This document shows, piece after piece, positions 3,070 through 64,000 of a stretch of DNA of 64,000 nt. Each line of letters opens with the position of its first letter. The first letter of the stretch is position 1. Source of the stretch: Escherichia coli. GTDB lineage: Bacteria > Pseudomonadota > Gammaproteobacteria > Enterobacterales > Enterobacteriaceae. The notes under the pieces are model-generated. The model was not told the origin of the DNA, searched no databases, and saw only the letters and a list, made by a program, of their open reading frames with translations. Position numbers and translations under genes: made by a program. The stretch lies in assembly GCF_045037415.1 (NCBI RefSeq), contig NZ_CP173438.1. One strand, given 5' to 3'.

Positions 3070-3424
3070 GTAAATTTAGGATTAATCCTGGAACTTTTTT
3101 TATCGCCCAGCCAATGCTTTCAGTCGTGACTAATTTTCCTTGCGGAGGCTTGTCTGAAGCGGTTTCCGCGATTTTCTTCTGTAAATTGTCGCTGACAAAA
3201 AAGATTAAACGTACCTTATACAAGACTTTTTTTTCATATGCCTGACGGAGTTCACACTTGTAAGTTTTCAACTACGTTGTAGACTTTACATCGCCAGGGG
3301 TGCTCGGCATAAGCCGAAGATATCGGTAGAGTTAATATTGAGCAGATCCCCGGTGAAGGATTTAACCGTGTTATCTCGTTGGAGATATTCATGGCGTATT
3401 TTGGATGATAACGAGGCGCAAAAA

Positions 3425-4477
3425 ATGAAAAAGACAGCTATCGCGATTGCAGTGGCACTGGCTGGTTTCGCTACCGTAGCGCAGGCCGCTCCGAAAGATA
3501 ACACCTGGTACACTGGTGCTAAACTGGGCTGGTCCCAGTACCATGACACTGGTTTTATTCCTAACAATGGTCCGACCCACGAAAACCAACTGGGTGCAGG
3601 TGCTTTTGGTGGTTACCAGGTTAACCCGTATGTTGGCTTTGAAATGGGTTACGACTGGTTAGGTCGTATGCCGTACAAAGGCGACAACATCAACGGCGCA
3701 TACAAAGCTCAGGGCGTTCAGCTGACCGCTAAACTGGGTTACCCAATCACTGACGATCTGGACATCTACACTCGTCTGGGTGGTATGGTATGGCGTGCAG
3801 ACACCAAGGCTAACGTACCTGGTGGCGCATCCTTTAAAGACCACGACACCGGCGTTTCTCCGGTCTTCGCTGGCGGTGTTGAGTATGCGATCACTCCCGA
3901 AATCGCTACCCGTCTGGAATACCAGTGGACCAACAACATCGGTGATGCACACACCATCGGCACTCGTCCGGACAACGGCATGCTGAGCCTGGGTGTTTCC
4001 TACCGTTTCGGTCAGGGCGAAGCAGCTCCAGTAGTTGCTCCGGCTCCAGCTCCGGCACCGGAAGTACAGACCAAGCACTTCACTCTGAAGTCTGACGTTC
4101 TGTTCACCTTCAACAAAGCAACCCTGAAACCGGAAGGTCAGGCTGCTCTGGATCAGCTGTACAGCCAGCTGAGCAACCTGGATCCGAAAGACGGTTCCGT
4201 AGTTGTTCTGGGTTACACTGACCGCATCGGTTCTGACGCTTATAACCAGGCTCTGTCCGAGCGTCGTGCTCAGTCCGTTGTTGATTACCTGATCTCTAAA
4301 GGTATCCCGGCAGACAAAATCTCCGCACGTGGTATGGGCGAATCCAACCCGGTTACTGGCAACACCTGTGACAACGTGAAACAGCGTGCTGCACTGATCG
4401 ATTGCCTGGCTCCGGATCGTCGCGTAGAGATCGAAGTTAAAGGCATCAAAGACGTTGTAACTCAGCCGCAGGCTTAA
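3425..4477 (+). CDS. ompA: Outer membrane protein A, 350 aa, variant surface-loop allele
   Basis: Signal peptide [21 protein letters not shown], beta-barrel, APAPAPAP hinge and C-terminal OmpA/peptidoglycan-binding domain; track ORF 3338..4477 includes 29 spurious upstream codons. Confidence 0.95.
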
Positions 4478-4490
4478 GTTCTCGTCTGGT

Positions 4491-4520
4491 AAAAAACCCC
4501 GCTGCTGCGGGGTTTTTTTT
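4491..4520. terminator. Rho-independent terminator between convergent ompA and matP
   Basis: AAAAAACCCCGCTGCTGCGGGGTTTTTTTT: GC stem flanked by A and T runs. Confidence 0.8.
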
Positions 4521-4552
4521 CGCCTTGCGTAAATTGAACTGACTTTTGACAG

Positions 4553-17565: not shown

Positions 17566-18576
17566 TTAGATATGGGTAACGATTTCTTTAATCAGCGGCG
17601 GACCTTTAAAAATAAAACCAGAATAAATTTGCACCAGTGAGGCACCCGCAGCAATCTTTTCACGCGCAGCGATAACCGAGTCAATGCCGCCAACACCAAT
17701 AATCGGCAAGCGTCCGTTTAATTCCTGTGACAAGCGGCGAATAATTTCGGTGCTTTTTAACTGAAGCGGACGACCACTTAAGCCACCGGTTTGATCACAA
17801 TTTTTCATTCCCTGAACCAGAGAACGATCGAGTGTGGTATTGGTTGCAATAACGCCATCAATATTATGGCGAACTAAACTATCGGCAACCTGGATCAATT
17901 CTTCTTCAGAAAGATCCGGCGCGATCTTCACTGCGATCGGCACATATTTATGGTGCATCACTTGCAAATCATTTTGTTTATTTTTAATCGCAGTTAAGAG
18001 ATCATCCAGCGCTTCACCATATTGCAGTGTGCGTAATCCTGGGGTATTTGGCGATGAAATATTGATGGCGATATATCCCGCATAGGCATAGATTTTTTCC
18101 ATACAAATCAGATAGTCATCTTTACCCTGCTCCACCGGCGTATCTTTATTTTTGCCGATGTTAATACCCAGAACGCCGTCATAATGGGCTTTTTTTACGT
18201 TCTCTACGAGGTTATCAACGCCAAGATTATTAAAGCCCATACGGTTGATCAAACCTTCGGCATCTACCAGACGAAAGAGACGCGGCTTGTCATTACCTGG
18301 CTGGGGACGTGGCGTGACGGTACCGATCTCGATGGATCCAAATCCCATCGCGCCTAACGCGTCAATGCACTCCCCGTCTTTATCAAGACCGGCTGCCAGA
18401 CCAAGCGGATTTTTAAACGTCAGGCCCATGCAGTTAACAGGTTTCGCAGGCACTTTCTGCCGCACCAGTGCTTCAAACGGCGTTCCTGTAATACGGCGTA
18501 ATTGCTGAAAAGTAAACTCATGAGCGCGCTCTGGATCGAGCTGGAAAAGGGCTTTACGAACGAAGGGGTAGTACAT
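17566..18576 (-). CDS. pyrD: Dihydroorotate dehydrogenase (quinone) PyrD, 336 aa
   Basis: Translation from [21 protein letters not shown]; track ORF begins at an upstream TTG. Confidence 0.93.
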
Positions 18577-18662
18577 GAACTCTCCTGGATTCCCGGTGTG
18601 CAAACCGGGGGCGTATTATGTGCGAGTTCGGACCAAAAGGGAATTGACCTGCGGCAATAAAT

Positions 18663-52483: not shown

Positions 52484-54157
52484 TTACTCGCCTTTAGCTG
52501 CTTTGAAAGCTTCAGCCATTGCGTTGTTGGAGAAGTTTGCATCTTCCTGTTTGTTAACAGTTGCGATTGCATCTTTCTCGTCAGCTTCGTCTTTCGCACG
52601 AACAGACAGGCTGATTGCGCGGTTTTTACGATCAACGCCGGTGAATTTAGCTTCAACTTCGTCGCCAACGCTCAGAACCAGGGTAGCGTCTTCAACGCGG
52701 TCACGGGATGCTTCAGAAGCACGCAGGTAACCTTCAACGCCGTCAGCCAGTTCTACGGTTGCGCCTTTAGCGTCAACTGCAGTTACTTTACCGGTTACGA
52801 TAGCGCCTTTCTTGTTCAGAGCAACCCAGTTGTTGAACGGATCTTCTGCGAGCTGTTTAACGCCCAGGGAGATACGTTCACGTTCTGCGTCAACCTGCAG
52901 AACAACTGCAGCGATTTCGTCGCCTTTTTTGTATTCACGAACTGCTTCTTCGCCTGCAACGTTCCAGGAGATGTCAGACAGGTGAACCAGGCCGTCGATG
53001 CCGCCGTCCAGGCCGATGAAGATACCGAAGTCAGTGATAGACTTGATTTTACCTTCAACACGGTCGCCCTTGTTGTGGGTTTCCGCGAACTGCTGCCACG
53101 GGTTAGCTTTGCACTGTTTCAGACCCAGGGAGATACGACGACGTTCTTCGTCGATATCCAGAACCATAACTTCCACTACATCGCCAACGTTAACAACTTT
53201 GGACGGGTGGATGTTTTTGTTGGTCCAATCCATTTCGGAAACGTGTACCAGGCCTTCAACGCCTTCTTCGATTTCAACGAAGCAGCCGTAGTCGGTCAGG
53301 TTGGTCACGCGACCAGTCAGTTTGGTACCTTCCGGATAACGTTTAGCGATAGCTACCCACGGATCTTCGCCCAGCTGTTTCAGGCCCAGGGATACACGGG
53401 TACGTTCGCGGTCGAACTTCAGCACTTTAACAGTGATTTCGTCGCCCACGTTGACGATTTCGCTCGGATGCTTAACGCGTTTCCAGGCCATGTCAGTGAT
53501 GTGCAGCAGGCCGTCAACGCCGCCCAGATCAACGAATGCACCGTAGTCAGTGAGGTTCTTAACGATACCTTTAACTTCCATGCCTTCCTGCAGGTTTTCC
53601 AGCAGCTGATCGCGCTCTGCGCTGTTTTCGGATTCGATAACGGCACGACGAGAAACAACAACGTTGTTGCGCTTCTGATCCAGCTTGATTACTTTGAATT
53701 CAAGCTCTTTGCCTTCCAGGTGCAGAGTGTCACGCACCGGACGAACATCTACCAGAGAACCTGGCAGGAACGCACGAATACCGTTCAGCTCAACAGTGAA
53801 GCCGCCCTTAACTTTGCCGTTGATAACACCGGTAACAGTTTCAGCATCTTCGTAAGCTTTTTCCAGCGTGATCCAGGCTTCGTGACGTTTAGCTTTCTCA
53901 CGGGACAGCAGAGTTTCACCGAAGCCGTCTTCTACTGCGTCCAGAGCAACGTCAACTTCGTCACCTACCTGGATTTCCAGCTCGCCCTGGGCGTTTTTGA
54001 ACTGCTCAGCCGGGATGGCGGACTCAGATTTCAGACCAGCGTCAACCAGTACTACGTCTTTGTCGATAGCAACAACAACGCCACGAACGATAGAACCCGG
54101 GCGGGTTTCGATTTCTTTTAAGGACTCTTCAAAGAGTTGAGCAAAAGATTCAGTCAT
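52484..54157 (-). CDS. rpsA: 30S ribosomal protein S1, 557 aa
   Basis: Six S1 repeats; N-terminus [26 protein letters not shown]. Confidence 0.95.
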
Positions 54158-54267
54158 GTTTAATCTTCAGGTTTATATTTAACGTCCACCTGGCTCCATG
54201 CCGGATGGGGTTGTTTAACATACCCGCTGTCATTCCATTGCAACGGGGGTACTGCAAATTCGGTCGC

Positions 54268-54951
54268 TTATGCGAGAGCCAATTTCTGGCGCGCGTATTG
54301 TAGCGCTTTTTCAATCACTTGCTCAATGCTTAAGGTGGTGGAATCCAACACTAAAGCATCGGCTGCCGGAACCAGTGGCGCTACCGCTCGATTACGATCG
54401 CGGTCGTCACGTTCTTTGATCTCGGCCAAAAGGCGCTCAAAGTTAACACTAAAGCCCTTCTCCTGCAACTGTAGCATGCGGCGATGCGCACGTTCTTCCG
54501 AGGAGGCGTCAAGGAAAATTTTCACTGGCGCATCAGGGAATACCACCGTTCCCATGTCGCGCCCATCGGCAATCAGGCCTGGTAATTCGCGAAACGCGCG
54601 TTGGCGACGCAATAATGCTTCACGAACGCGTGGGAATGCCGCGACTTGTGAAGCAGCATTCGCCACCTCCTGAGTACGAATTTCGCCGCTGACATCTTCC
54701 CCTTCGAGGATCACTTCCAGATTGCCGTTGGTTGACACAAAACGTACATCCAGATGGGATGCCAGCGGCACCAGCGCATCTTCCGATGCAACATCAACAT
54801 GGTGATGTAATGCCGCTAGTGCCAGTACGCGATAAATTGCACCCGAATCCAGCAGATGCCATTGCAACGCTTCCGCCATAGCCTTACACAAGGTGCCTTT
54901 CCCTGCACCGCTTGGGCCATCAATGGTAATAACCGGGGCAATTGCCGTCAT
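54268..54951 (-). CDS. cmk: Cytidylate kinase, 227 aa
   Basis: P-loop GPSGAGKGT; synteny upstream of rpsA. Confidence 0.95.
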
Positions 54952-55123
54952 CTTTATCTCCTTAAAACAGGCGTACCGTTAACATAACCGCGCGCATTAT
55001 ACGCGCCGACGCCACAAATCGTTAACGTTGTGTGCAAAAACCAGTTTTGTCTGTATTCAGATGGGGATTTATTGCGCAATTATAGCGGGCTGGCAGAAGA
55101 CCAGCCCGAAAGATGACAATGAT

Positions 55124-55886
55124 TTACTTACCAGAGGCGATACGATCACGGATGTGTTGCGCACGCTCTGTTGATGGTGGGTGAGAATCAAACATGGACT
55201 GGGTGTGACCGCCATCCAGGCTAGCGAGTTTTTCAAAGCTACCAACCAGCCCCTGGGTACTGATGCCACGTTTCTTCAACAGATCAAAGGAGAAATCATC
55301 TGCTTCTGACTCTTTATCACGGGAGTATTTAGCATTGATAGCGCCTTCTGCGATATCACCCAATTGTGAGCGGGAAAGCTGGGAAGCCACACCGCTGGTA
55401 GCTGAAATGGCATCGCGTGCGGCCACGATCGCATAAGAAGCTTTCATTTCAGCCAGCGAGTGACCCAACGCGACGTGGCCCAGTTCATGGCCCAGAACGC
55501 CTTCAATTTCGTTGTCGTTCATCATGTCCATCAGGCCACTGTAGACACGAACACAACCGTTCGCCATCGCCCATGCGTTGACGTCGCTGGTCATATAAAC
55601 CTTATAGTTGACTGGCGTGCCATTAATATTGTTACCCAATGCTTTGGCGATTTTTGCCAGACGTTTCCCGTACTTGCTGGATTTGCTTGCCACTTTATTG
55701 CCGCTGTCCATTTCGACACAGCCCTGATTGGCGATTGCTTTAGCATCAGCATCGCTTAATGTTGCGGCTTTATAAGCATTCAGACCTGAGCTGATAGCCA
55801 AATCGGTATTAATACCGTGCGTATTCTGACATCCTGTCAGTAAGGCTGCAGAGGTCGCAATCGCCAGCAATAATTTAGTATTCTTC
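55124..55886 (-). pseudogene. ycaL: Zn-metalloprotease lipoprotein YcaL: coding body intact but native ATG start and RBS displaced at the prophage junction
   Basis: In-frame codons for KNTKLLLAIATSAALLTGC (lipobox) and HELGH zinc motif are present, but the codon where Met1 is expected reads CAG, an in-frame TAA lies 16 codons upstream, and the first usable start is a TTG at codon 7 with no SD. Confidence 0.55.
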
Positions 55887-55961
<75 letters not shown>

Positions 55962-55962
55962 T

Positions 55963-56040
<78 letters not shown>

Positions 56041-56049
56041 TTGCAGATA

Positions 56050-56439
56050 TTACTCTTTTTTCTCCGTATCTGCATCGGGTTCATCAGCAAATAGCTTGCC
56101 CTGCATCCGATCCAGTTCTTCTTTTCTTACCCGCTTAACCACGCTGTAGACCCACTGAAGCGAAACACCAAATTTGCGGGCCAGTTCGTGGTGGTTGCGT
56201 CCGTTAAACTCCCTGAAGATTTCCCGGTCGCGCTGACTGACCTTCCATACCATGCCCATCGGGAAATAAACGTTTTGCCCGCCCCAGACCTGCATCATTC
56301 GGTTCGCGACGGCCTGACCAATCTGGTCGGCAACTTCGGGCTCAATATCAATAATCTCGCGAACGGTCTCAGAGGTATGCTGTGCCAGTTCCACCAGGAG
56401 TTCCGGCCCCTTACTTCGAAACTGATTCAGGTCGCTCAT
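56050..56439 (-). CDS. mor: Mor/C-family transcriptional activator (Mu middle-operon regulator homologue), 129 aa
   Basis: Same length as Mu Mor; motifs GGQNVYFP and REFNGRNHHELARKFGVSLQWVYSVVKRVR parallel the Mor HTH region as recalled. Confidence 0.75.
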   Translation of the reverse strand: MSDLNQFRSKGPELLVELAQHTSETVREIIDIEPEVADQIGQAVANRMMQVWGGQNVYFPMGMVWKVSQRDREIFREFNGRNHHELARKFGVSLQWVYSVVKRVRKEELDRMQGKLFADEPDADTEKKE

Positions 56440-56860
56440 GTTTGACTCCCGCAGCTCTGCGCTGCCACTTCTTCAGTTTCTCAATAACACTGCTTGCCTG
56501 TTCAGTACTGAGCCAGCGCAGGGCGCTGATGCCCGTTTCCCGCTTGATCCACCTCGCTAATGCATTTTCTGAACGGTCACGAACAATGCCGGCAGCAGCC
56601 ATTTCAAGCCATAGCGCACGAATTTTCCTGGACTGCGGATGGTTATCAAGCGGTAAACCGGAGCTGGCTTTTCTGGCTGGTTTAACGCGAAAGCCTTTCT
56701 TTTTCATGGATTCCAGCACGCAGTTTAGTTGTGTGGTATCCATTCCTTTGGTTGAGGCTTTACCGGTCAGCCCCTGTAACATCTGGCGGTAGGTGTCTTC
56801 ATCCATACCCAGTTCATTACGGGCAATATGGATAAGCTGTATCAGGCGTTTTTTCTGCAT
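56411..56860 (-). CDS. GemA-like protein (Mu gp16 / DUF1018 family), 149 aa
   Basis: N-terminal LIQLIHIARNELGMDEDTYRQMLQGLTGKASTKGM resembles Mu GemA/gp16 as recalled; sits immediately upstream of mor as in Mu. Confidence 0.55.
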   Translation of the reverse strand: MQKKRLIQLIHIARNELGMDEDTYRQMLQGLTGKASTKGMDTTQLNCVLESMKKKGFRVKPARKASSGLPLDNHPQSRKIRALWLEMAAAGIVRDRSENALARWIKRETGISALRWLSTEQASSVIEKLKKWQRRAAGVKHERPESVSK

Positions 56861-56861
56861 A

Positions 56862-57068
56862 TCATCTCCTTTTTTTCAGTCTGTCGGCAACAATGTCGGT
56901 TGCAGCTGGCAGGGTGACTGGCCAGAACAACATGACGGCGGTCATGTACAGGATGTAATGCGCGGTGTCGTAGTGCCTGCCATAGCCCAGGGAACGATGA
57001 AGTCTTGCGCTGCATGATCCTGCGTACATATACCAGAAAAGAAAACAGACAATGGTTTCAGTAGTCAT
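56862..57068 (-). CDS. Small hydrophobic protein, about 68 aa (start at internal Met of track ORF 56862..57224)
   Basis: MTTETIVCFLFWYMYAGSCSA... predicted TM segments; packed between neighbouring genes. Confidence 0.3.
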   Translation of the reverse strand: MTTETIVCFLFWYMYAGSCSARLHRSLGYGRHYDTAHYILYMTAVMLFWPVTLPAATDIVADRLKKRR

Positions 57069-57288
57069 TCTGAATACCTCCCCATTCGATATGAATATTA
57101 CGGGCAGCAATGACAGGGTCGTTATTCCACCATGCACCTGACATGTATTTTTCAACCTGTTCGCGTCCGGCAATAACACCAATTGTGATCCCCGGCCTGA
57201 CGTTCTTAAAAAAGGCGCGGGCAAAAAGGTATCTGGCAGATATTCGGCAGGCTTTTAATTTCCGGCTTTTACCTGATAGCGTAATCAT
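57058..57288 (-). CDS. Hypothetical phage protein, 76 aa
   Basis: Start overlaps the stop of the upstream gene (coupled arrangement); no recognisable motif. Confidence 0.35.
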   Translation of the reverse strand: MITLSGKSRKLKACRISARYLFARAFFKNVRPGITIGVIAGREQVEKYMSGAWWNNDPVIAARNIHIEWGGIQNDY

Positions 57289-57968
57289 CTGGCCTCCAGT
57301 TTCTGTTGTTCCTGCCCACTGACCGGGCGGTGCAGTCTGACGTTCTGCCCTTCACGAAACCCCGCATAGCGCGAGGCGTCGCCATTGCGGCTTCTTCCCG
57401 GTTTACGCGCCCTGGTGGTTTGCGTCTGCGGGTATTTATGTTCCAGCCACTGCTGCATCAGTTCACGCTCATCATCGGTCAGGGCAAAGGACTGTATTTC
57501 ACTGATAACGGCCAGCACCCAGCCTTCGGCAAACTGGTCTCCACGGCTGGTGCGGGTGGCGGTTTTTATTCTTTTGTTCTGTGCACTGATATACTGCTGA
57601 CGCGCCTTTTTCAGCTGACGGGCCAGCACTTCCCAGGTGTATGCAGCCAGTGCCGCACGTTCCCGGTTGCCGTAGAACCCCACAGACGGATGCGTGCCGG
57701 GGTGAATGATGGAGTTAACACCAAATACCTCGCGGATGATGTTCATCAGGCCCAGCATGTAGCGCGGTGGACGGAGACTGCCTGTCGGCCAGTAGTGACT
57801 GATGGTTTCATCAATATCACTCATAGCAATGTCGGAATGTGTGATGCCGTGAACATCCATCAGTTTACGGGCTCGGCGCAGTGCCAGAGCGGCCTCGTGC
57901 GGGTTGCCGGATGCGGCCAGCGCCAGCAACTTTTTCAGTTTCTCAATGTGTTTATTCTGGTCTGTCAT
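57285..57968 (-). CDS. Hypothetical phage protein with DUF2786-like N-terminal motif, about 227 aa
   Basis: KHIEKLKKLLALAASGNPHEAALALRRARKLMDVHGI motif; start placed at the second Met to avoid a 40-nt overlap (track ORF 57285..58004). Confidence 0.45.
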   Translation of the reverse strand: MTDQNKHIEKLKKLLALAASGNPHEAALALRRARKLMDVHGITHSDIAMSDIDETISHYWPTGSLRPPRYMLGLMNIIREVFGVNSIIHPGTHPSVGFYGNRERAALAAYTWEVLARQLKKARQQYISAQNKRIKTATRTSRGDQFAEGWVLAVISEIQSFALTDDERELMQQWLEHKYPQTQTTRARKPGRSRNGDASRYAGFREGQNVRLHRPVSGQEQQKLEAR

Positions 57969-58180
57969 TGTTCTGTATCTCCGGTATTTTTCTGCCGTTT
58001 CCATGCCCGGACAGCGTCGGACAGCTCTTTCAGGCTGTATGCTGCTTTAAGCTTTTCCCATAACCACTGTGTTGTTATGTGCATCAGCAGGGCAGCCAGG
58101 GCTGCCCCCGCACTGAGGCATGTCGCCAGGCCAGTAAGAATCAGTGTCCATGCGGTGATTTCCCTGAGTATGTCAGCCAT
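57965..58180 (-). CDS. Small membrane protein, 71 aa
   Basis: Single predicted TM helix (WTLILTGLATCLSAGAALAALLM) followed by a charged tail. Confidence 0.4.
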   Translation of the reverse strand: MADILREITAWTLILTGLATCLSAGAALAALLMHITTQWLWEKLKAAYSLKELSDAVRAWKRQKNTGDTEQ

Positions 58181-58194
58181 TGAATGCCTCCCGG

Positions 58195-58491
58195 TTACTC
58201 GTTCGTGTAAATCACGCCCAGTCGTGCAGCCAGACGTTCCAGTTTTTTCTGTTTGTGGAAGTCAATCAGCCGGTCCATCCCCTGAAGGCGCAGTTGCTCT
58301 GTCATGATTTCCACGTCTGCCAGCTCTGCCGCGAGGTCACTTTCGCTGCCCTGTCCGTTCAGGTTGCGGGCGGCACTGGCCGCCAGTTCAGCGGCCTCTT
58401 CTGCCAGTTTCAGGGCCTGTGCGTCCGGCCCGAAACGCTGCAGGGCCAGACGGTAGAGGGCGGTGCGGGTGAGTTCGGTGTTTCGTGTCAT
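58195..58491 (-). CDS. MazG-like nucleotide pyrophosphohydrolase-domain protein, 98 aa
   Basis: EEAAELAA...AAELADVEIM pattern typical of the small all-alpha MazG/HisE fold. Confidence 0.5.
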   Translation of the reverse strand: MTRNTELTRTALYRLALQRFGPDAQALKLAEEAAELAASAARNLNGQGSESDLAAELADVEIMTEQLRLQGMDRLIDFHKQKKLERLAARLGVIYTNE

Positions 58492-58500
58492 GCCGCGCCC

Positions 58501-58773
58501 TCAGTGCTTCCGGCTGACGGTGATGTGCAGGCCGCCTTCTGCAGTGGTTTCCATCCGGTACGGCACCTCATGCTCTGCCGTGTGGGTGAGTGTGTTCATC
58601 AGTACCTGCAGGGCAGCCTCCTTTCCGTTGGTCGCCACAATGGCCTGTGTGGCCATGCTGATTAGCGCCGTCAGGACGTGCTTCACATCGGTGAGGTCGC
58701 GGCATTCACACTCGTTGACATAGTGTTCAACAAGGGTTCGGGTGCGCTGTCGTGCTTCCTGTGGGGTAATCAT
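58501..58773 (-). CDS. Hypothetical phage protein, 90 aa
   Basis: ORF in operon context, coupled to the downstream gene; no motif recognised. Confidence 0.4.
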   Translation of the reverse strand: MITPQEARQRTRTLVEHYVNECECRDLTDVKHVLTALISMATQAIVATNGKEAALQVLMNTLTHTAEHEVPYRMETTAEGGLHITVSRKH

Positions 58774-58964
58774 TGCGAGTCCTCCCTGTCAGGGCGGGAG
58801 AATTCCATGACGGGCACGTCTGCCGAAAAATGCTGGCTGCAGTACGGGCAGACCAGGGTGACGCGTACCGCAGGGATGTGGTATTTACCGGACATCACGG
58901 CGATGGCGCTGTGAAAACGCAGGGCTGTTATATCCCTCTCGCACTGAATACATTTAAATATCAT
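58770..58964 (-). CDS. Small zinc-ribbon protein, 64 aa
   Basis: CxxC (CIQC) ... CxxC (CPYC) pairs. Confidence 0.45.
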   Translation of the reverse strand: MIFKCIQCERDITALRFHSAIAVMSGKYHIPAVRVTLVCPYCSQHFSADVPVMEFSRPDREDSQ

Positions 58965-59061
58965 GATTTAATTCTCCTCTGTTTCCGGCGTGCAGAAGCC
59001 CGCGGCGCTGACGTCGGAATAAAAAAGAAAATGTTTTTATTAAATAATTAACGTGGTGTGT

Positions 59062-59592
59062 TTACTGCACATCCTGCTCAAAAGGAATTATTGAAAAATC
59101 CTCAATGTCGCTTTTAATGGAAATACCGGGAATATTTTTCACGGCCTCTTTTTCATTCAGGATAGCGTCTTTATTTATTTCCTCTTTTACACGAATAAAG
59201 CGCTCAAGCCCCAGACGTCTCAGTAATTCAATAACATTATCCGCCCCACGGATACTGACTGATGGCGGACGGTTTCGCCACTGCACCTCGCCGGTGGTGA
59301 GGTTAGCGAACTTCACCTTCCCGTTGCCGGTCAGTTCATCACGGTGTGCCTCACACCATGTCTGAATACCGGACTGCAGTTCGGCCATGCGTTTTTTCAG
59401 GCTCTCGGTGAGCGGGGCATAACGTGCGGTGATATCGCCAATGGCGTCATTCATTTCTGTTTCAGCCCTGACCAGTTCACGTTGTGCGTCACCGAGTAGT
59501 CTGATTCCCTCAATGACCTCTTCACGTGTCCCCGGCACCCAGAGTGCTGCTGCGGCCTTGATACGTTTTGCACCTTTTGTACTTTTTGCCAT
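59062..59592 (-). CDS. gam: Gam-like host-nuclease inhibitor / DNA-end binding protein (Mu Gam family), 176 aa
   Basis: MAKSTKGAKRIKAAAALWVP...TEMNDAIGDIT...WCEAHRDELT...VSIRGADNVIELLRRLGLERFIRVKEEINKDAIL...FSIIPFEQD closely parallels Mu Gam as recalled. Confidence 0.85.
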   Translation of the reverse strand: MAKSTKGAKRIKAAAALWVPGTREEVIEGIRLLGDAQRELVRAETEMNDAIGDITARYAPLTESLKKRMAELQSGIQTWCEAHRDELTGNGKVKFANLTTGEVQWRNRPPSVSIRGADNVIELLRRLGLERFIRVKEEINKDAILNEKEAVKNIPGISIKSDIEDFSIIPFEQDVQ

Positions 59593-59619
59593 TTTTTATG
59601 ATTTCTCCAGTTGTGCTGA

Positions 59620-59889
59620 TTACCACAAAGATTCCGGCCACACGACGCGACAGCCGTGCAGTTCGAAAACGCCCTGACGGAAATATCCCCTGTGGTCATG
59701 TCCGGTATACAGATAACAGGCCTTTCCCTGCTCAAGCATGCGCATGCAATGCGCACTCCGGGAAACGCGGATGACAGGTTTGTTACCCCTGATGGTGATG
59801 CTTTGTACATCCGTGTTCGTCGCCTTAAGCGCCATAATGGCTGACTGCACTTTGCTGATTTGCTGGTTGATACCTGTGGTGGATTTCAT
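59620..59889 (-). CDS. Hypothetical phage protein, 89 aa
   Basis: ORF between the MuB-like gene and gam, where Mu carries kil; no motif recognised. Confidence 0.4.
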   Translation of the reverse strand: MKSTTGINQQISKVQSAIMALKATNTDVQSITIRGNKPVIRVSRSAHCMRMLEQGKACYLYTGHDHRGYFRQGVFELHGCRVVWPESLW

Positions 59890-59891
59890 TA

Positions 59892-61097
59892 TTAAACCCC
59901 TTTGACAACGTCAGCGTTGACCTGTGGAACCCCGATTTCAGCGGCCAGATTCATGGCGGCTATTACCAGGTTACTGACGGCCAGCGGATACAGCAGGCTG
60001 ACCATATTTTTACGGTGACTTCCCGGATTGCTCAGGCGGGCACGTATGGCATCCACTGCACCGGCGTCCATAATGTCCGTCAGCTGTTTACCGGCCCGTT
60101 GCAGTTTGAACGTCAGAAATTCTTCAAGGTTATTGTCCAGAGGCAGAAGTTCGACCACCTCACAGCGCTGAACGACTTCACGGACTTCCATATTGCGTTC
60201 AGACAGTTTTGTCGCCAGTTCCGGCTGGCCAATCAGCACGATGGACAGCAGTTTTTTGAAACCGGACTCCAGCTCAAAAAAGCGTTTGAGGTGTTTCAGT
60301 GTCGGAATGGGCAGACTGTGGGCCTCCTCAATCACCAGAACGTGGCTGAACCCCGCCTGGCTGCTGTCTTTCAGGACGCGATGCAACTGGCGAAAACGGG
60401 CGTCCTGACTGCGTCTGATGCTTTCCAGTGGTGCGATGGTACTGATAATGGCTTCGGCAATAGCTGCTGCCTTCAGGGTTTTCCCTTTCACATCGTTGTC
60501 TTCCATAGCGATGATGTATGGCTCGATAACAATTACCGGCGCATTCTCGCGGTTGATACGTTCAGTCAGGTCGCGGCGCAGCGTGGATTTACCCGCACCG
60601 GACTCACCGATGACGGCCATAAACCCACCATGACGGGCTGTCTGGTACAGCGCCTCACGCACGTAGCGAATGTCCGGGGTGGTGAACACATCATCAGAAC
60701 CCTGCATGGCTTCGTCGGCGAACGGGTCACGGAAAAGACCAAACGCTTTTTTGGTTGCTGGAAATAACACCTGTTTTTTGAGTAACATATTCTCTTCCTC
60801 ACTGAGGCTCGTTTTATCTGTGGTACCCGCTGTACGGGGCGTGGCCGCGCCCTGTACAGCATCAAAACTCTTCGTTGTATCAATCCCCTGACTTTCCAGC
60901 CAGGACGCAAGACGCCGGCGCACTTCTCCGGGGCTGGTGCGGGGCCACGCGTTATGATTCACAATCTGGGCCAGCGTGGCCTCAGAAACATCGACAGCTC
61001 TCGCCACCACCGCCTGTGGAATACGGGCCTCTTTCAGTTGCTGCTTCAGTACCAGCATGTTTCCCTCCTCAGTTGCCGTTAACAATGCTGATAACAC
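59892..61097 (-). CDS. MuB-like transposition ATPase (N-terminal HTH plus AAA+), up to 401 aa
   Basis: Walker A GESGAGKST, N-terminal Xre-like HTH (AVVARAVDVSEATLAQIV); immediately downstream of the transposase; start uncertain (the Met at 61058 would remove the overlap with the transposase gene). Confidence 0.8.
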   Translation of the reverse strand: MLSALLTATEEGNMLVLKQQLKEARIPQAVVARAVDVSEATLAQIVNHNAWPRTSPGEVRRRLASWLESQGIDTTKSFDAVQGAATPRTAGTTDKTSLSEEENMLLKKQVLFPATKKAFGLFRDPFADEAMQGSDDVFTTPDIRYVREALYQTARHGGFMAVIGESGAGKSTLRRDLTERINRENAPVIVIEPYIIAMEDNDVKGKTLKAAAIAEAIISTIAPLESIRRSQDARFRQLHRVLKDSSQAGFSHVLVIEEAHSLPIPTLKHLKRFFELESGFKKLLSIVLIGQPELATKLSERNMEVREVVQRCEVVELLPLDNNLEEFLTFKLQRAGKQLTDIMDAGAVDAIRARLSNPGSHRKNMVSLLYPLAVSNLVIAAMNLAAEIGVPQVNADVVKGV

Positions 61098-62838
61098 TGC
61101 TGCGGGCCGGTGTGGTCAGCGTGGCCATGACTTCATCCAGTGCGGCTTCCGGTACGCCGTCCGGGTACTGTGCCGTTAACTGGCGGTAATGTTCCGGCGT
61201 CCAGGTAAGGCCGTCGGCGCTGAACTTATCGCGCAGGGCTTTCGCGGCCTCCACATGAGTCATGGGACGTTGTTCAGTGCGCGGCCCGCGTACGTCAGAG
61301 GCCTGACCACGCTTCGGCATATAGGCCGGAAGTGTGGTGTCGTCGATATGTTTATACGGGTCAAGCCGCCCGCCGAACGGCAGCGCCTTCGCCTTGCGTG
61401 CGGCGGCTGCATCTGCGGCGTTGTCTGTACCGGTAACCAGCGCTTCGGTTTCTTTTGCCGCCATCTGTGCCGGGGTTTCCGGCAGGGCTTTGTAACTTTC
61501 GCCAAATACCGCCGCGCCTTCAGCAAAGCCAAACTCGTTCTTTCTGACCTCTTCGACCAGGAAGAACGTCTCGTGGCCGTCCTCACCGGTCAGAACCACC
61601 TGTGCCACATCGCTGCGCCATGGGTTACGGGTAATCATCAGTTTTTCACCAACCAGTACGCCCGGTACCGTTGATACGTCAAATTCAGTGCCCCGGAACG
61701 AGACACGAAGTTTTGGCGTGACTTTGCGGAGTTCTGGTGCCGCCACAGCCAGTTCACGACATACCTCAACGGAAGGCGCTTTTTTCAGCTGCTCAGCAGT
61801 AATCTTCAGCCAGATATCCGTGCGGGTTTTACCGTGGCGGCTGTGAACAGCCGTGGCGTTAAAGTGGCTGCGCCATTTCGCGGCCAGCGCGTTGAGTTCT
61901 TCCAGACTGTGAACCGGCCGGAACTTCAGACCCGGCTCCAGCTTGCGTTCGATAATGTCACGCGCCTTTTCCACCTGTCCGGTGGCGCGGGCGTTATGCG
62001 GCTTGTGCGCTATCAGGTCGATGCCCAGTGAGCGGCACATGTTTTTCGTCATACCCGCGGTGTTTGCCGAGCCGGGGTCGAGATAGAGTATTTTCGGCAC
62101 GCCGTGCAGCACGTCTGCGCCGCCACGCTCCTGCATGGCGTTGATAAGCACAGAACACAGGTTCTCACCTGATTCCGCGCCCGTCACATACTCAACGTAA
62201 ATCCAGCCGCTGGCATGGTCGGTAATCTCGTAACTCCACACGCGGTCACTGGCGATACGGGCAAGGTTAGCGGGCTTGTTCTTGTAGAACTTCGCGCTGT
62301 CCATCACCTGCAGCCCTTTATGTCCATTGCTCAGGTAGTAAAGCGTGCAGAGTGAGGCGTCAATCTGCCAGACATGATTGGGATGCAGACTGGCCACTTC
62401 GGTATGTGGTGCAGGGGCATCCAGTTGTTCCGGGTGCAGGCCATAGTTACGCAGAGCACGGCTGATGGCATCTTCAGACAACGGGAAAAACTCACTGGTG
62501 GTTTCATCTGTTCTGCCTGCGGTGATAAAGCCGTTAGCCCGCAGGGTTTCCACTGCATCTGCGATGGAATAGAGACGCTTACCGTTCTTGCGGGTGGCCT
62601 CACGCAGTGTGGCAGATATCAGCGCGGCTTCGTCGCGGGTCAGGGCGCTGCGCCCGGCATCGGCGCGTTTTTTGCGTTTATCAGTCACAGATACCTCCTT
62701 CAGCCTGCGCAGCAGAGTGGCGCGGGACATGCCAAGTTCAGCACAGGCAGCGTCGTATATTGCACCGCGTTTACCATGCCCCGCGTCACGTGCCGCGCGG
62801 GCTGTTTCAACCAGTTTTTCAGTCAGTGCCGGGGTCAT
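61069..62838 (-). CDS. DDE (rve/Mu-type) transposase, 589 aa
   Basis: N-terminal HTH; catalytic core with VWQIDAS ... YLDPGSANT ... ATGQVE arrangement. Confidence 0.85.
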   Translation of the reverse strand: MTPALTEKLVETARAARDAGHGKRGAIYDAACAELGMSRATLLRRLKEVSVTDKRKKRADAGRSALTRDEAALISATLREATRKNGKRLYSIADAVETLRANGFITAGRTDETTSEFFPLSEDAISRALRNYGLHPEQLDAPAPHTEVASLHPNHVWQIDASLCTLYYLSNGHKGLQVMDSAKFYKNKPANLARIASDRVWSYEITDHASGWIYVEYVTGAESGENLCSVLINAMQERGGADVLHGVPKILYLDPGSANTAGMTKNMCRSLGIDLIAHKPHNARATGQVEKARDIIERKLEPGLKFRPVHSLEELNALAAKWRSHFNATAVHSRHGKTRTDIWLKITAEQLKKAPSVEVCRELAVAAPELRKVTPKLRVSFRGTEFDVSTVPGVLVGEKLMITRNPWRSDVAQVVLTGEDGHETFFLVEEVRKNEFGFAEGAAVFGESYKALPETPAQMAAKETEALVTGTDNAADAAAARKAKALPFGGRLDPYKHIDDTTLPAYMPKRGQASDVRGPRTEQRPMTHVEAAKALRDKFSADGLTWTPEHYRQLTAQYPDGVPEAALDEVMATLTTPARSSVISIVNGN

Positions 62839-62853
62839 AGCTTGTCTTCCCTG

Positions 62854-63171
62854 TTATCCGATTCTGGCGGCAATTTTTCTGGCGAGGTCGCACAGTGTTT
62901 CGCCATCGCAGGTTTTCACCACGGTATTTACCGGTTGCGGTGCAACTACCGGGCGTAATGCTGACTGATTCTGCAGACGTCTTATCTGCTGCATCAGCAT
63001 CACCTCCATCGTCAGTACAAACGGGTGCGTCTCCTGTGCGGGTACGCAGATTTCACCGGAAGGGGTCACCACGCGGAAACCCTGCACCATCTCCGGCAGC
63101 AGATTACACAGTGCGTGCCCCAGTGCCTCCGGGCTGTCCATCAGGGTATTTTGTGTGTTATTCGTATTCAT
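62854..63171 (-). CDS. Hypothetical phage protein, 105 aa
   Basis: ORF immediately upstream of the transposase; start overlaps the stop of the upstream gene. Confidence 0.4.
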   Translation of the reverse strand: MNTNNTQNTLMDSPEALGHALCNLLPEMVQGFRVVTPSGEICVPAQETHPFVLTMEVMLMQQIRRLQNQSALRPVVAPQPVNTVVKTCDGETLCDLARKIAARIG

Positions 63172-64000
63172 TACTGCATATCCTCCGGTCGGTTGATTTC
63201 AGGTTCCGGTTCGGTCAGCCAGGCGGGGGCATCGTTACCCGATGGAGCGGCCTCAAGGTCAAACGTCTCACGTAATGCATGAACACTGCGTTCAATCTGG
63301 CAGACCAGACCGGCCATGAAATCTCTGGGGGTATCGATCATGTTTTTGGTGCAGTATTCACACAGGGTCTCAAAAACACTGGACAGCCGGACGGCGATAG
63401 CCGATTCGGCCTCAACCGCTAATGCCGTCACTTCCGCCCGCAATTTTTTCAGTTCTTCGTCTGGCGGCGGAGGTTGCAGGCGCGATTTCTTCTCCAGTTT
63501 TGTGGCCAGTTCGTTGATTTTTTCGTCCTTTCCGGCAAGCACCTGTTGCTGAGCTGCGTTGGTTTCGCGCGCTTCACGCAGGGCGGCCTTCAGTTCGCGG
63601 CTGGTCATGCGATCAATATCATCAAGCGTTGCACCGGCGACGGTTCCACCATCAGCTAATGCGTCGAGTTCTTCGTCATCCAGAACCATCAGTTCATATA
63701 ACTTGGTTTTTCCCAAAACGCTCAGCGCTGAGCGTTTTGGCTGTTCATCTCCATTGCCGAGAAATTTCACGCTGGCCTGCATCATGCGACGAGCTACCTG
63801 TGGTGCTAATCCGAGGTCGTTTTCCAGAATATTTGTGAAATCACCATGCGGTTCATTTTCTTTTAAGATGATCAGCCGCTTACCCGCTTCCAACATAGAT
63901 TCAGCACTCTGCGCCATATAAAAACGTGCTTCGTGAACGATGCGTTCACGTTCATAAGGCAGTCCATCACCAAACTGCTGCATGATCTCCATGCGATGCT
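63171..64000 (-). CDS. Hypothetical phage protein, at least 273 aa, probably 5'-truncated by the window edge
   Basis: Long ORF with coiled-coil-like C-terminal half; reading frame stays open to position 64000. Confidence 0.45.
   Translation of the reverse strand, partial: HRMEIMQQFGDGLPYERERIVHEARFYMAQSAESMLEAGKRLIILKENEPHGDFTNILENDLGLAPQVARRMMQASVKFLGNGDEQPKRSALSVLGKTKLYELMVLDDEELDALADGGTVAGATLDDIDRMTSRELKAALREARETNAAQQQVLAGKDEKINELATKLEKKSRLQPPPPDEELKKLRAEVTALAVEAESAIAVRLSSVFETLCEYCTKNMIDTPRDFMAGLVCQIERSVHALRETFDLEAAPSGNDAPAWLTEPEPEINRPEDMQ

Follow-up and report, generated by a model that had tools for sequence, protein, structure and literature searches.

The ompA gene in a 64,000-nt stretch of Escherichia coli DNA (RefSeq contig NZ_CP173438.1; this whole stretch is hereafter called the window) encodes a protein whose exposed loops differ from those of K-12 OmpA. 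This raises the questions of whether the allele is peculiar to its strain, how the difference arose, and what it would mean for the phages and other ligands that recognise OmpA at the cell surface. A sequence-only reading had described a variant surface-loop allele with a lengthened loop 3, and had suggested that such an allele may alter phage susceptibility in a strain that also carries a prophage. Our analysis shows that the window allele is one of two major, long-described classes of E. coli ompA and not a strain peculiarity, and that the K-12 allele is no more 'wild type' than the long allele. Very probably, the locus is an intact chromosomal ompA carrying the major natural class with the long loop 3, which is old and inherited with its lineage, and whose surface tips set ligand recognition.

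Identity and setting of the gene

The coding sequence lies on the plus strand at 3425..4477 and, read by translation, runs from ATG 3425 to TAA 4477, specifying 350 amino acids and a stop; the extent and identity proposed by the sequence-only reading are exact, and NCBIfam, Pfam and synteny agree with them. The initiating ATG is preceded by a GAGG Shine-Dalgarno sequence, read directly from the letters, and opens the canonical 21-aa OmpA signal peptide (3425..3487, plus strand), which is the same as that of K-12; PDB constructs of the mature chain start at residue 21/22. Because the ribosome-binding site and signal peptide both favour ATG 3425, a longer open reading frame started by TTG at 3338 is rejected as an artefact of mechanical ORF listing, and the extension is not real. 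The 350-aa product matches the NCBIfam porin OmpA equivalog NF008071 over residues 1-350, with 675.2 bits against a cutoff of 277. Within it, the Pfam OmpA_membrane domain (PF01389) is found at residues 23-199 (267 bits), and the periplasmic, OmpA-like peptidoglycan-binding domain (PF00691) at residues 226-321 (85 bits; 4100..4387, plus strand). A proline-rich linker of 16 aa, visible in the translation, joins the barrel to the C-terminal domain (4016..4063, plus strand); it is the same as in K-12 and corresponds to mature residues 173-188 (PMC5413513).

When the open reading frames of the window are set against the K-12 annotation, the gene order is sulA-ompA-matP with matP convergent, which is also the order at Salmonella loci. 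The sulA-ompA intergenic region (3070..3424, plus strand) is expected to hold the ompA promoter and long 5' UTR and is 99.2% identical to K-12, with 3 mismatches and 1 gap column. The window gene is an intact, normally placed chromosomal ompA.

In the gap between ompA and matP lies an intrinsic terminator hairpin, AAAAAACCCCGC-UGCU-GCGGGGUUUUUUUU (4488..4524, plus strand), which folds at -21.7 kcal/mol (z = -5.6) and has an A-run and a T-run on its sides. It is probably a bidirectional terminator between the two convergent genes. A simple consensus scan for terminators and promoters missed the ompA terminator at 4488-4524 and returned hits at chance level only, and an Rfam scan of the whole window gave nothing at ompA. 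The sole Rfam family to reach its gathering score in the window is the PyrD leader (RF02373, 97.9 bits) at 18571-18644 on the minus strand, upstream of pyrD.

Position of the loop differences and class of the allele

Differences are given here in mature K-12 numbering relative to BW25113 OmpA (346 aa), with the full-length, K-12-type protein of PDB 3NB3 as a cross-check; both alignments present the same picture. The K-12 sequence on which the sequence-only reading relied proves accurate, and all of the loop motifs that it quoted are present in both alignments, including the loop 3 longer by four residues. Window OmpA and K-12 OmpA (pattern I,alpha; PDB 1BXW, 1QJP and 3NB3; OmpA-short, 9FZC) share the gene, the locus, the signal peptide, the eight strands, loop 4, the linker and the periplasmic fold. 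The two proteins have 337 of 346 alignable residues in common, with zero differences at barrel positions outside the sites in loops 1 to 3, whereas the loop-coding segment has diverged by 8.3% at the nucleotide level.

Loop 1 carries N25P (motif FIPNNGP), encoded by CCT at 3560..3562 (plus strand) in place of the K-12 codon AAC, the loop being assigned from Liao 2017. In loop 2, the codons at 3683..3691 (plus strand) specify Asp-Asn-Ile for K-12 Ser66-Val67-Glu68, that is, S66D, V67N and E68I, turning SVE into DNI (motif KGDNINGAY). The K-12 loop 3 sequence SNVYGKN (residues 108-114) is replaced by a segment of 11 aa (3809..3841, plus strand), which combines S108A, Y111P and N114D with a four-residue insertion, GASF; the corresponding 12 nt, or four codons, fall at about 3824-3835 (plus strand), a gap placement that depends on the alignment. 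The sequence-only reading held that both the barrel core and the periplasmic domain match K-12. This is correct for the barrel core but not for the periplasmic domain, which carries N203T (FTFNK; codon 4106-4108, plus strand) and G251A (NQALSE; codon 4250-4252, plus strand).

The published loop map (Liao 2017, PMC5413513), in the numbering of Pautsch & Schulz, assigns residue 25 to the mobile stretch 22-28 of loop 1, residues 66-68 to the 'highly mobile' stretch 65-68 of loop 2, and residues 108-113 to loop 3, with residue 114 opening the next strand. The claim that the differences are exposed is borne out on this map, since residues 25, 66-68 and 108-113 belong to loops 1-3 and not to transmembrane strands, while N114D sits at the boundary of loop 3 and strand 6 and is not strictly in the loop. 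[quoted passage not shown] In a comparison of ten OmpA proteins (E. coli, Shigella, Salmonella and Yokenella), every indel in the barrel occurs at the three loop sites. The assignment of the barrel differences to extracellular loops 1-3 is thus supported, with the topology taken from published structures and from identity to 9FZD. An AlphaFold2 prediction from a shallow alignment of ten sequences had a mean pLDDT of 34, and the barrel is absent from that model.

Several classifications of ompA alleles converge on the window sequence. Compared with Table 3A of PMC5413513, it has the outer loops of the class known as OmpA-long, III,delta or C1 (Pro25, DNI at 66-68 and a loop 3 of 11 residues), and its loop 4 motif, DAHTIG, contains the His of pattern III and not the Asn of pattern II. 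C-terminal pattern delta is defined by A175, T203 and A251 (Liao 2017, PMC5413513 Table 3B), and all three residues are present. The window protein and the 9FZD type therefore share all seven defining positions (P25, DNI66-68, loop 3, the loop 4 His, A175, T203 and A251) and no difference between them is detectable, the crystal construct being without the periplasmic domain, where identity follows from the pattern definition and an exact-sequence look-up. Judged by its sequence, the allele is OmpA-long, which is pattern (III,delta) of Liao and C1 of Nielsen; the comparison with known ompA alleles that the sequence-only reading had proposed ends in a match. Table 3A of PMC5413513 puts the His/Asn site of loop 4 at position 149; counting along the mature K-12 chain gives His151, which is position 155 in long alleles and equivalent to Asn155 in the long S. 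flexneri numbering of the Sf6 work.

This class has a considerable history. Outer-loop pattern III was recorded in 14.1% of 78 environmental isolates (Liao 2017, PMC5413513 Table 3A), and (III,delta) in 41 of 400 isolates by Liao 2022 (PMC9560509), where it was equated with the C1 of Nielsen 2020, a pattern relatively commoner in neonatal-meningitis isolates (PMC6995065). Liao 2017 (PMC5413513) credits the earlier description of the loop 3 forms ANVPGGASF and SNVYG to Gophna 2004 and Power 2006, and the classes OmpA-long and OmpA-short have since been reported from about 86,000 genomes (Commun Biol 2025, PMC12259851). Our own searches place the allele among common ones. A Megablast search of 5,426 complete E. 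coli genomes found ompA in 5,425; 729 of these records are at least 99% identical to the window gene, and strains SA186, AVS0536 and GIMC1409 have it at 100% nucleotide identity. In an evenly spaced ranking of 30 rows, H1-H12 have the 1,053-nt gene and H13 onward the 1,041-nt gene, from which we estimate that about 38-41% of complete E. coli genomes carry the long allele. The exact protein, named 'porin OmpA' (UniProt A0A061YKB8), occurs on at least 1,000 public contigs. The finding is already known, in that the allele has been named, surveyed in populations, crystallised and tested with phages, and no new biology is added here.

Related sequences vary at the same loops. The OmpA of Shigella flexneri and S. 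dysenteriae, a pattern II-like long type (P0015), is identical to window OmpA in loops 1, 2 and 3, but differs in having Asn for His in loop 4 (DANTIG), Leu for Met161, N203 and G251, and in P0015 the linker is two residues shorter. A natural E. coli OmpA of 349 aa (P0010) has a duplicated loop 2 triplet (KGSVESVENGAY) and represents a further case of length variation at a loop tip. Plasmids account for five of the ompA-like places in the collection; on the E. coli plasmid NZ_CP097216.1 (4,668 bp), a gene for an 'outer membrane beta-barrel protein' at 635-978 resembles ompA nucleotides 199-554 with 90.4% identity.

Divergence and descent of the loop-coding segment

Nucleotide identity between the window and K-12, together with dS estimated by the Nei-Gojobori method, varies sharply along the gene. 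Codons 1-43 are 100% identical with a dS of 0; codons 44-175, by contrast, are 91.7% identical with a dS of 0.26, comprising 19.5 synonymous differences, and dN/dS is about 0.17 across this whole segment. Identity is 99.6% in codons 176-264 and 96.6% in codons 265-350, with a dS of 0.063 over codons 176-350 as a whole. The flanking genes are at 98.8% and a dS of 0.044 (sulA), and 97.8% and a dS of 0.10 (matP). Between the window and two Salmonella ompA genes, codons 44-175 show a dS of 0.43-0.63. By these synonymous distances, the loop-coding segment is several-fold older than its flanks, its divergence being roughly half that between E. coli and Salmonella.

Such depth bears directly on one conceivable origin, in which the loop changes would be recent, strain-specific escape mutations, with an OmpA-dependent phage or host immunity, for example, as the selecting agent. 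The location of the changes is what might be expected from this, since K-12 mutants that resist phages K3 and Ox2 are altered at residues 25, 70, 110 and 154 (as cited in PMC12032242), and three of these residues, 25, 70 and 110, mark the places where the window allele differs. A dS of 0.26 with 19.5 synonymous differences in codons 44-175 nevertheless rules out recent point mutation. The same nucleotide sequence occurs in unrelated entries, and the loop motifs recur in Shigella and Salmonella. Given also the 729 records at 99% identity or more and the number of contigs with the exact protein, we regard this origin as refuted and accord it practically no credence.

A second possibility is a recent import of the barrel-loop segment by recombination, the donor being another species or a distant Escherichia lineage. 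The abrupt mosaic relative to K-12, falling from full identity in codons 1-43 to 91.7% and returning to 99.6% after codon 175, has the appearance of an import; it also agrees with the published view that ompA evolves by local intragenic recombination of hypervariable loop segments (bioRxiv 10.1101/2021.09.21.461324). Loops 1 and 2 are, moreover, identical to those of Salmonella OmpA. Salmonella enterica OmpA shares the DNI of loop 2, a long loop 3 that contains PGG and has KD or KN as its last residues, and in some serovars FIPNNGP, but its loop 3 sequence differs (for example SNTLGGESTKN or SNKSNVPGGPSTKD) and its overall identity to the window is 94% for protein and about 91% for DNA. As codons 44-175 are only 89-90% identical to the two Salmonella genes, at a dS of 0.43-0.49, Salmonella is rejected as a recent donor. 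The long class is, furthermore, present in about 40% of E. coli genomes on many backgrounds, and the chromosome around the gene is about as frequent as the gene itself: many genomes, including Ecol_AZ146, p4A and FDAARGOS_1265, match the first 25 kb of the window at 100% identity, and this flank is at least 99% identical in 670 complete E. coli genome records, compared with 729 for ompA alone. This similarity in frequency fits vertical descent in this lineage, and recent import is on these grounds improbable.

The pattern instead fits an allele of an old class that, in this lineage, was inherited with the surrounding chromosome. Earlier recombination between E. coli lineages is compatible with that explanation. 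Because Salmonella OmpA shares FIPNNGP, DNI and a long loop 3 of the PGG type, the comparison suggests that the long type came first and that the short K-12 type is derived. Codons 265-350 and matP are more diverged from K-12 than are codons 176-264, a contrast suggesting that a second boundary of recombination lies within the region coding for the periplasmic domain (window 3950-4477).

Ligand recognition at the loop tips

As a member of an old and widespread class, the window protein would be expected to act as an ordinary OmpA, with its eight-stranded barrel, proline-rich linker and periplasmic peptidoglycan-binding domain. The tips of extracellular loops 1-3 would constitute the surface patch read by Gp38 adhesins (T2/K3/Ox2-like), by Sf6, and by antibodies and nanobodies, and the same patch is probably read by colicins and the F-plasmid protein TraN. 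Since it is in the tips forming this patch that the alleles differ, a cell bearing the window allele would be predicted to evade ligands adapted to the K-12 loops and to attract those adapted to the long type. Our analysis supplies the identity of the allele, its positions, its frequency and how deeply it has diverged; the effects on phages and nanobodies come from published papers.

The idea that loop alleles of this kind change phage susceptibility is supported by isogenic tests already published. Eight natural OmpA variants from the ECOR collection have been expressed in MG1655 delta-ompA (PMC12032242). Phages with type 1 Gp38, FL08 and AV119, infect all eight, but those with type 2 Gp38, FL12, FL18 and FL20, infect variants 1, 3 and 4 only, in which loop 2a is paired with either loop 3a or loop 3b; in these permissive variants the modelled contact is the loop 2 residue E89, the Glu68 of SVE. 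MG1655 was the isolation host. From the isolation host, the E89 contact and the description 'loop 2a plus 3a/3b', we infer that alleles with DNI and a long loop 3, like that of the window, would not serve type 2 phages as receptors. Shigella OmpA is the secondary receptor of phage Sf6. Infection by Sf6 is ten times poorer when the cells have K-12 OmpA than when they have the S. flexneri protein, whose loops 1-3 are those of the window allele; D66, N67 and P111, picked as informative positions, matter (bioRxiv 10.1101/509141).

Nanobodies draw the same distinction, in that Nb39 binds only strains with the long isoform and Nb01 only those with the short isoform (PMC12259851). The window allele is expected to be a long-type receptor, Nb39-positive and Nb01-negative, because its barrel is identical to the target in the Nb39 co-crystal. 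The same paper reports that O-antigen and capsule often mask OmpA in clinical strains, and the weight of the allele in vivo may be lower in view of this masking.

It might be argued that the allele is functionally neutral and makes no difference to phages, colicins, conjugation or immunity. Barrel assembly does not require the loops (Koebnik 1999, as cited in PMC12032242), Sf6 binds K-12-type and Shigella-type barrels in vitro with similar, nanomolar affinity (bioRxiv 10.1101/509141), the broad-range type 1 Gp38 phages make no distinction among the eight variants, and patterns I and II behave alike in attachment to corn stover (PMC5413513). Neutrality is, however, difficult to reconcile with type 2 Gp38 phages that tell natural variants apart when the background is isogenic, with the strict isoform specificity of Nb01 and Nb39, or with the ten-fold difference in Sf6 infection, which extends to genome ejection. 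According to PMC9560509, ompA alleles also alter surface properties in MG1655. We consider neutrality very improbable and favour an allele whose loop tips do affect recognition.

The sequence-only reading was right that the strain carries a prophage. The early region of a Mu-like prophage extends from about 56,050 to 64,000, running past the right end of the window, and contains genes for Mor, gp16, Gam, an ExeA/MuB-like ATPase, a DDE transposase and a DUF3102 protein; the insertion adjoins ycaL. The window is identical to Ecol_AZ146 over 53,000-64,000, and in that genome a transposable Mu-like prophage of about 37 kb lies between ycaL and aroA, with a recombinase beside its tail-fibre genes. 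A link between prophage and OmpA is rejected: the Mu-like transposable phage is about 52 kb from ompA, and neither our analysis nor the literature consulted shows a connection between the two.

Conjugation offers a further setting in which the allele might matter. OmpA is the partner of the F-plasmid protein TraN-gamma, and the loop 4 change G154D blocks both conjugation and certain phages (PMC10516633); in the literature consulted, the TraN tests cover K-12 OmpA, the G154D mutant and Klebsiella OmpA. One could imagine that the long-loop allele, in this lineage, which is identical to strains of the Ecol_AZ146 type, sets which therapeutic T-even phages are usable and alters the efficiency with which F-type plasmids with TraN-gamma are received. 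We think this unlikely, but if it were true, a natural ompA allele acting as a barrier or gate to conjugation would be new.

The clustering of changes at the loops suggests selection on them, dN/dS over the whole segment being about 0.17. Both classes persist in the species, and we infer that the most likely cause is diversifying or frequency-dependent selection at the cell surface, while local recombination would shuffle the long and short classes. For E. coli more broadly, the class of its ompA allele helps to predict recognition by OmpA-dependent phages, nanobodies and loop-based vaccines, a use to which published work already puts it.
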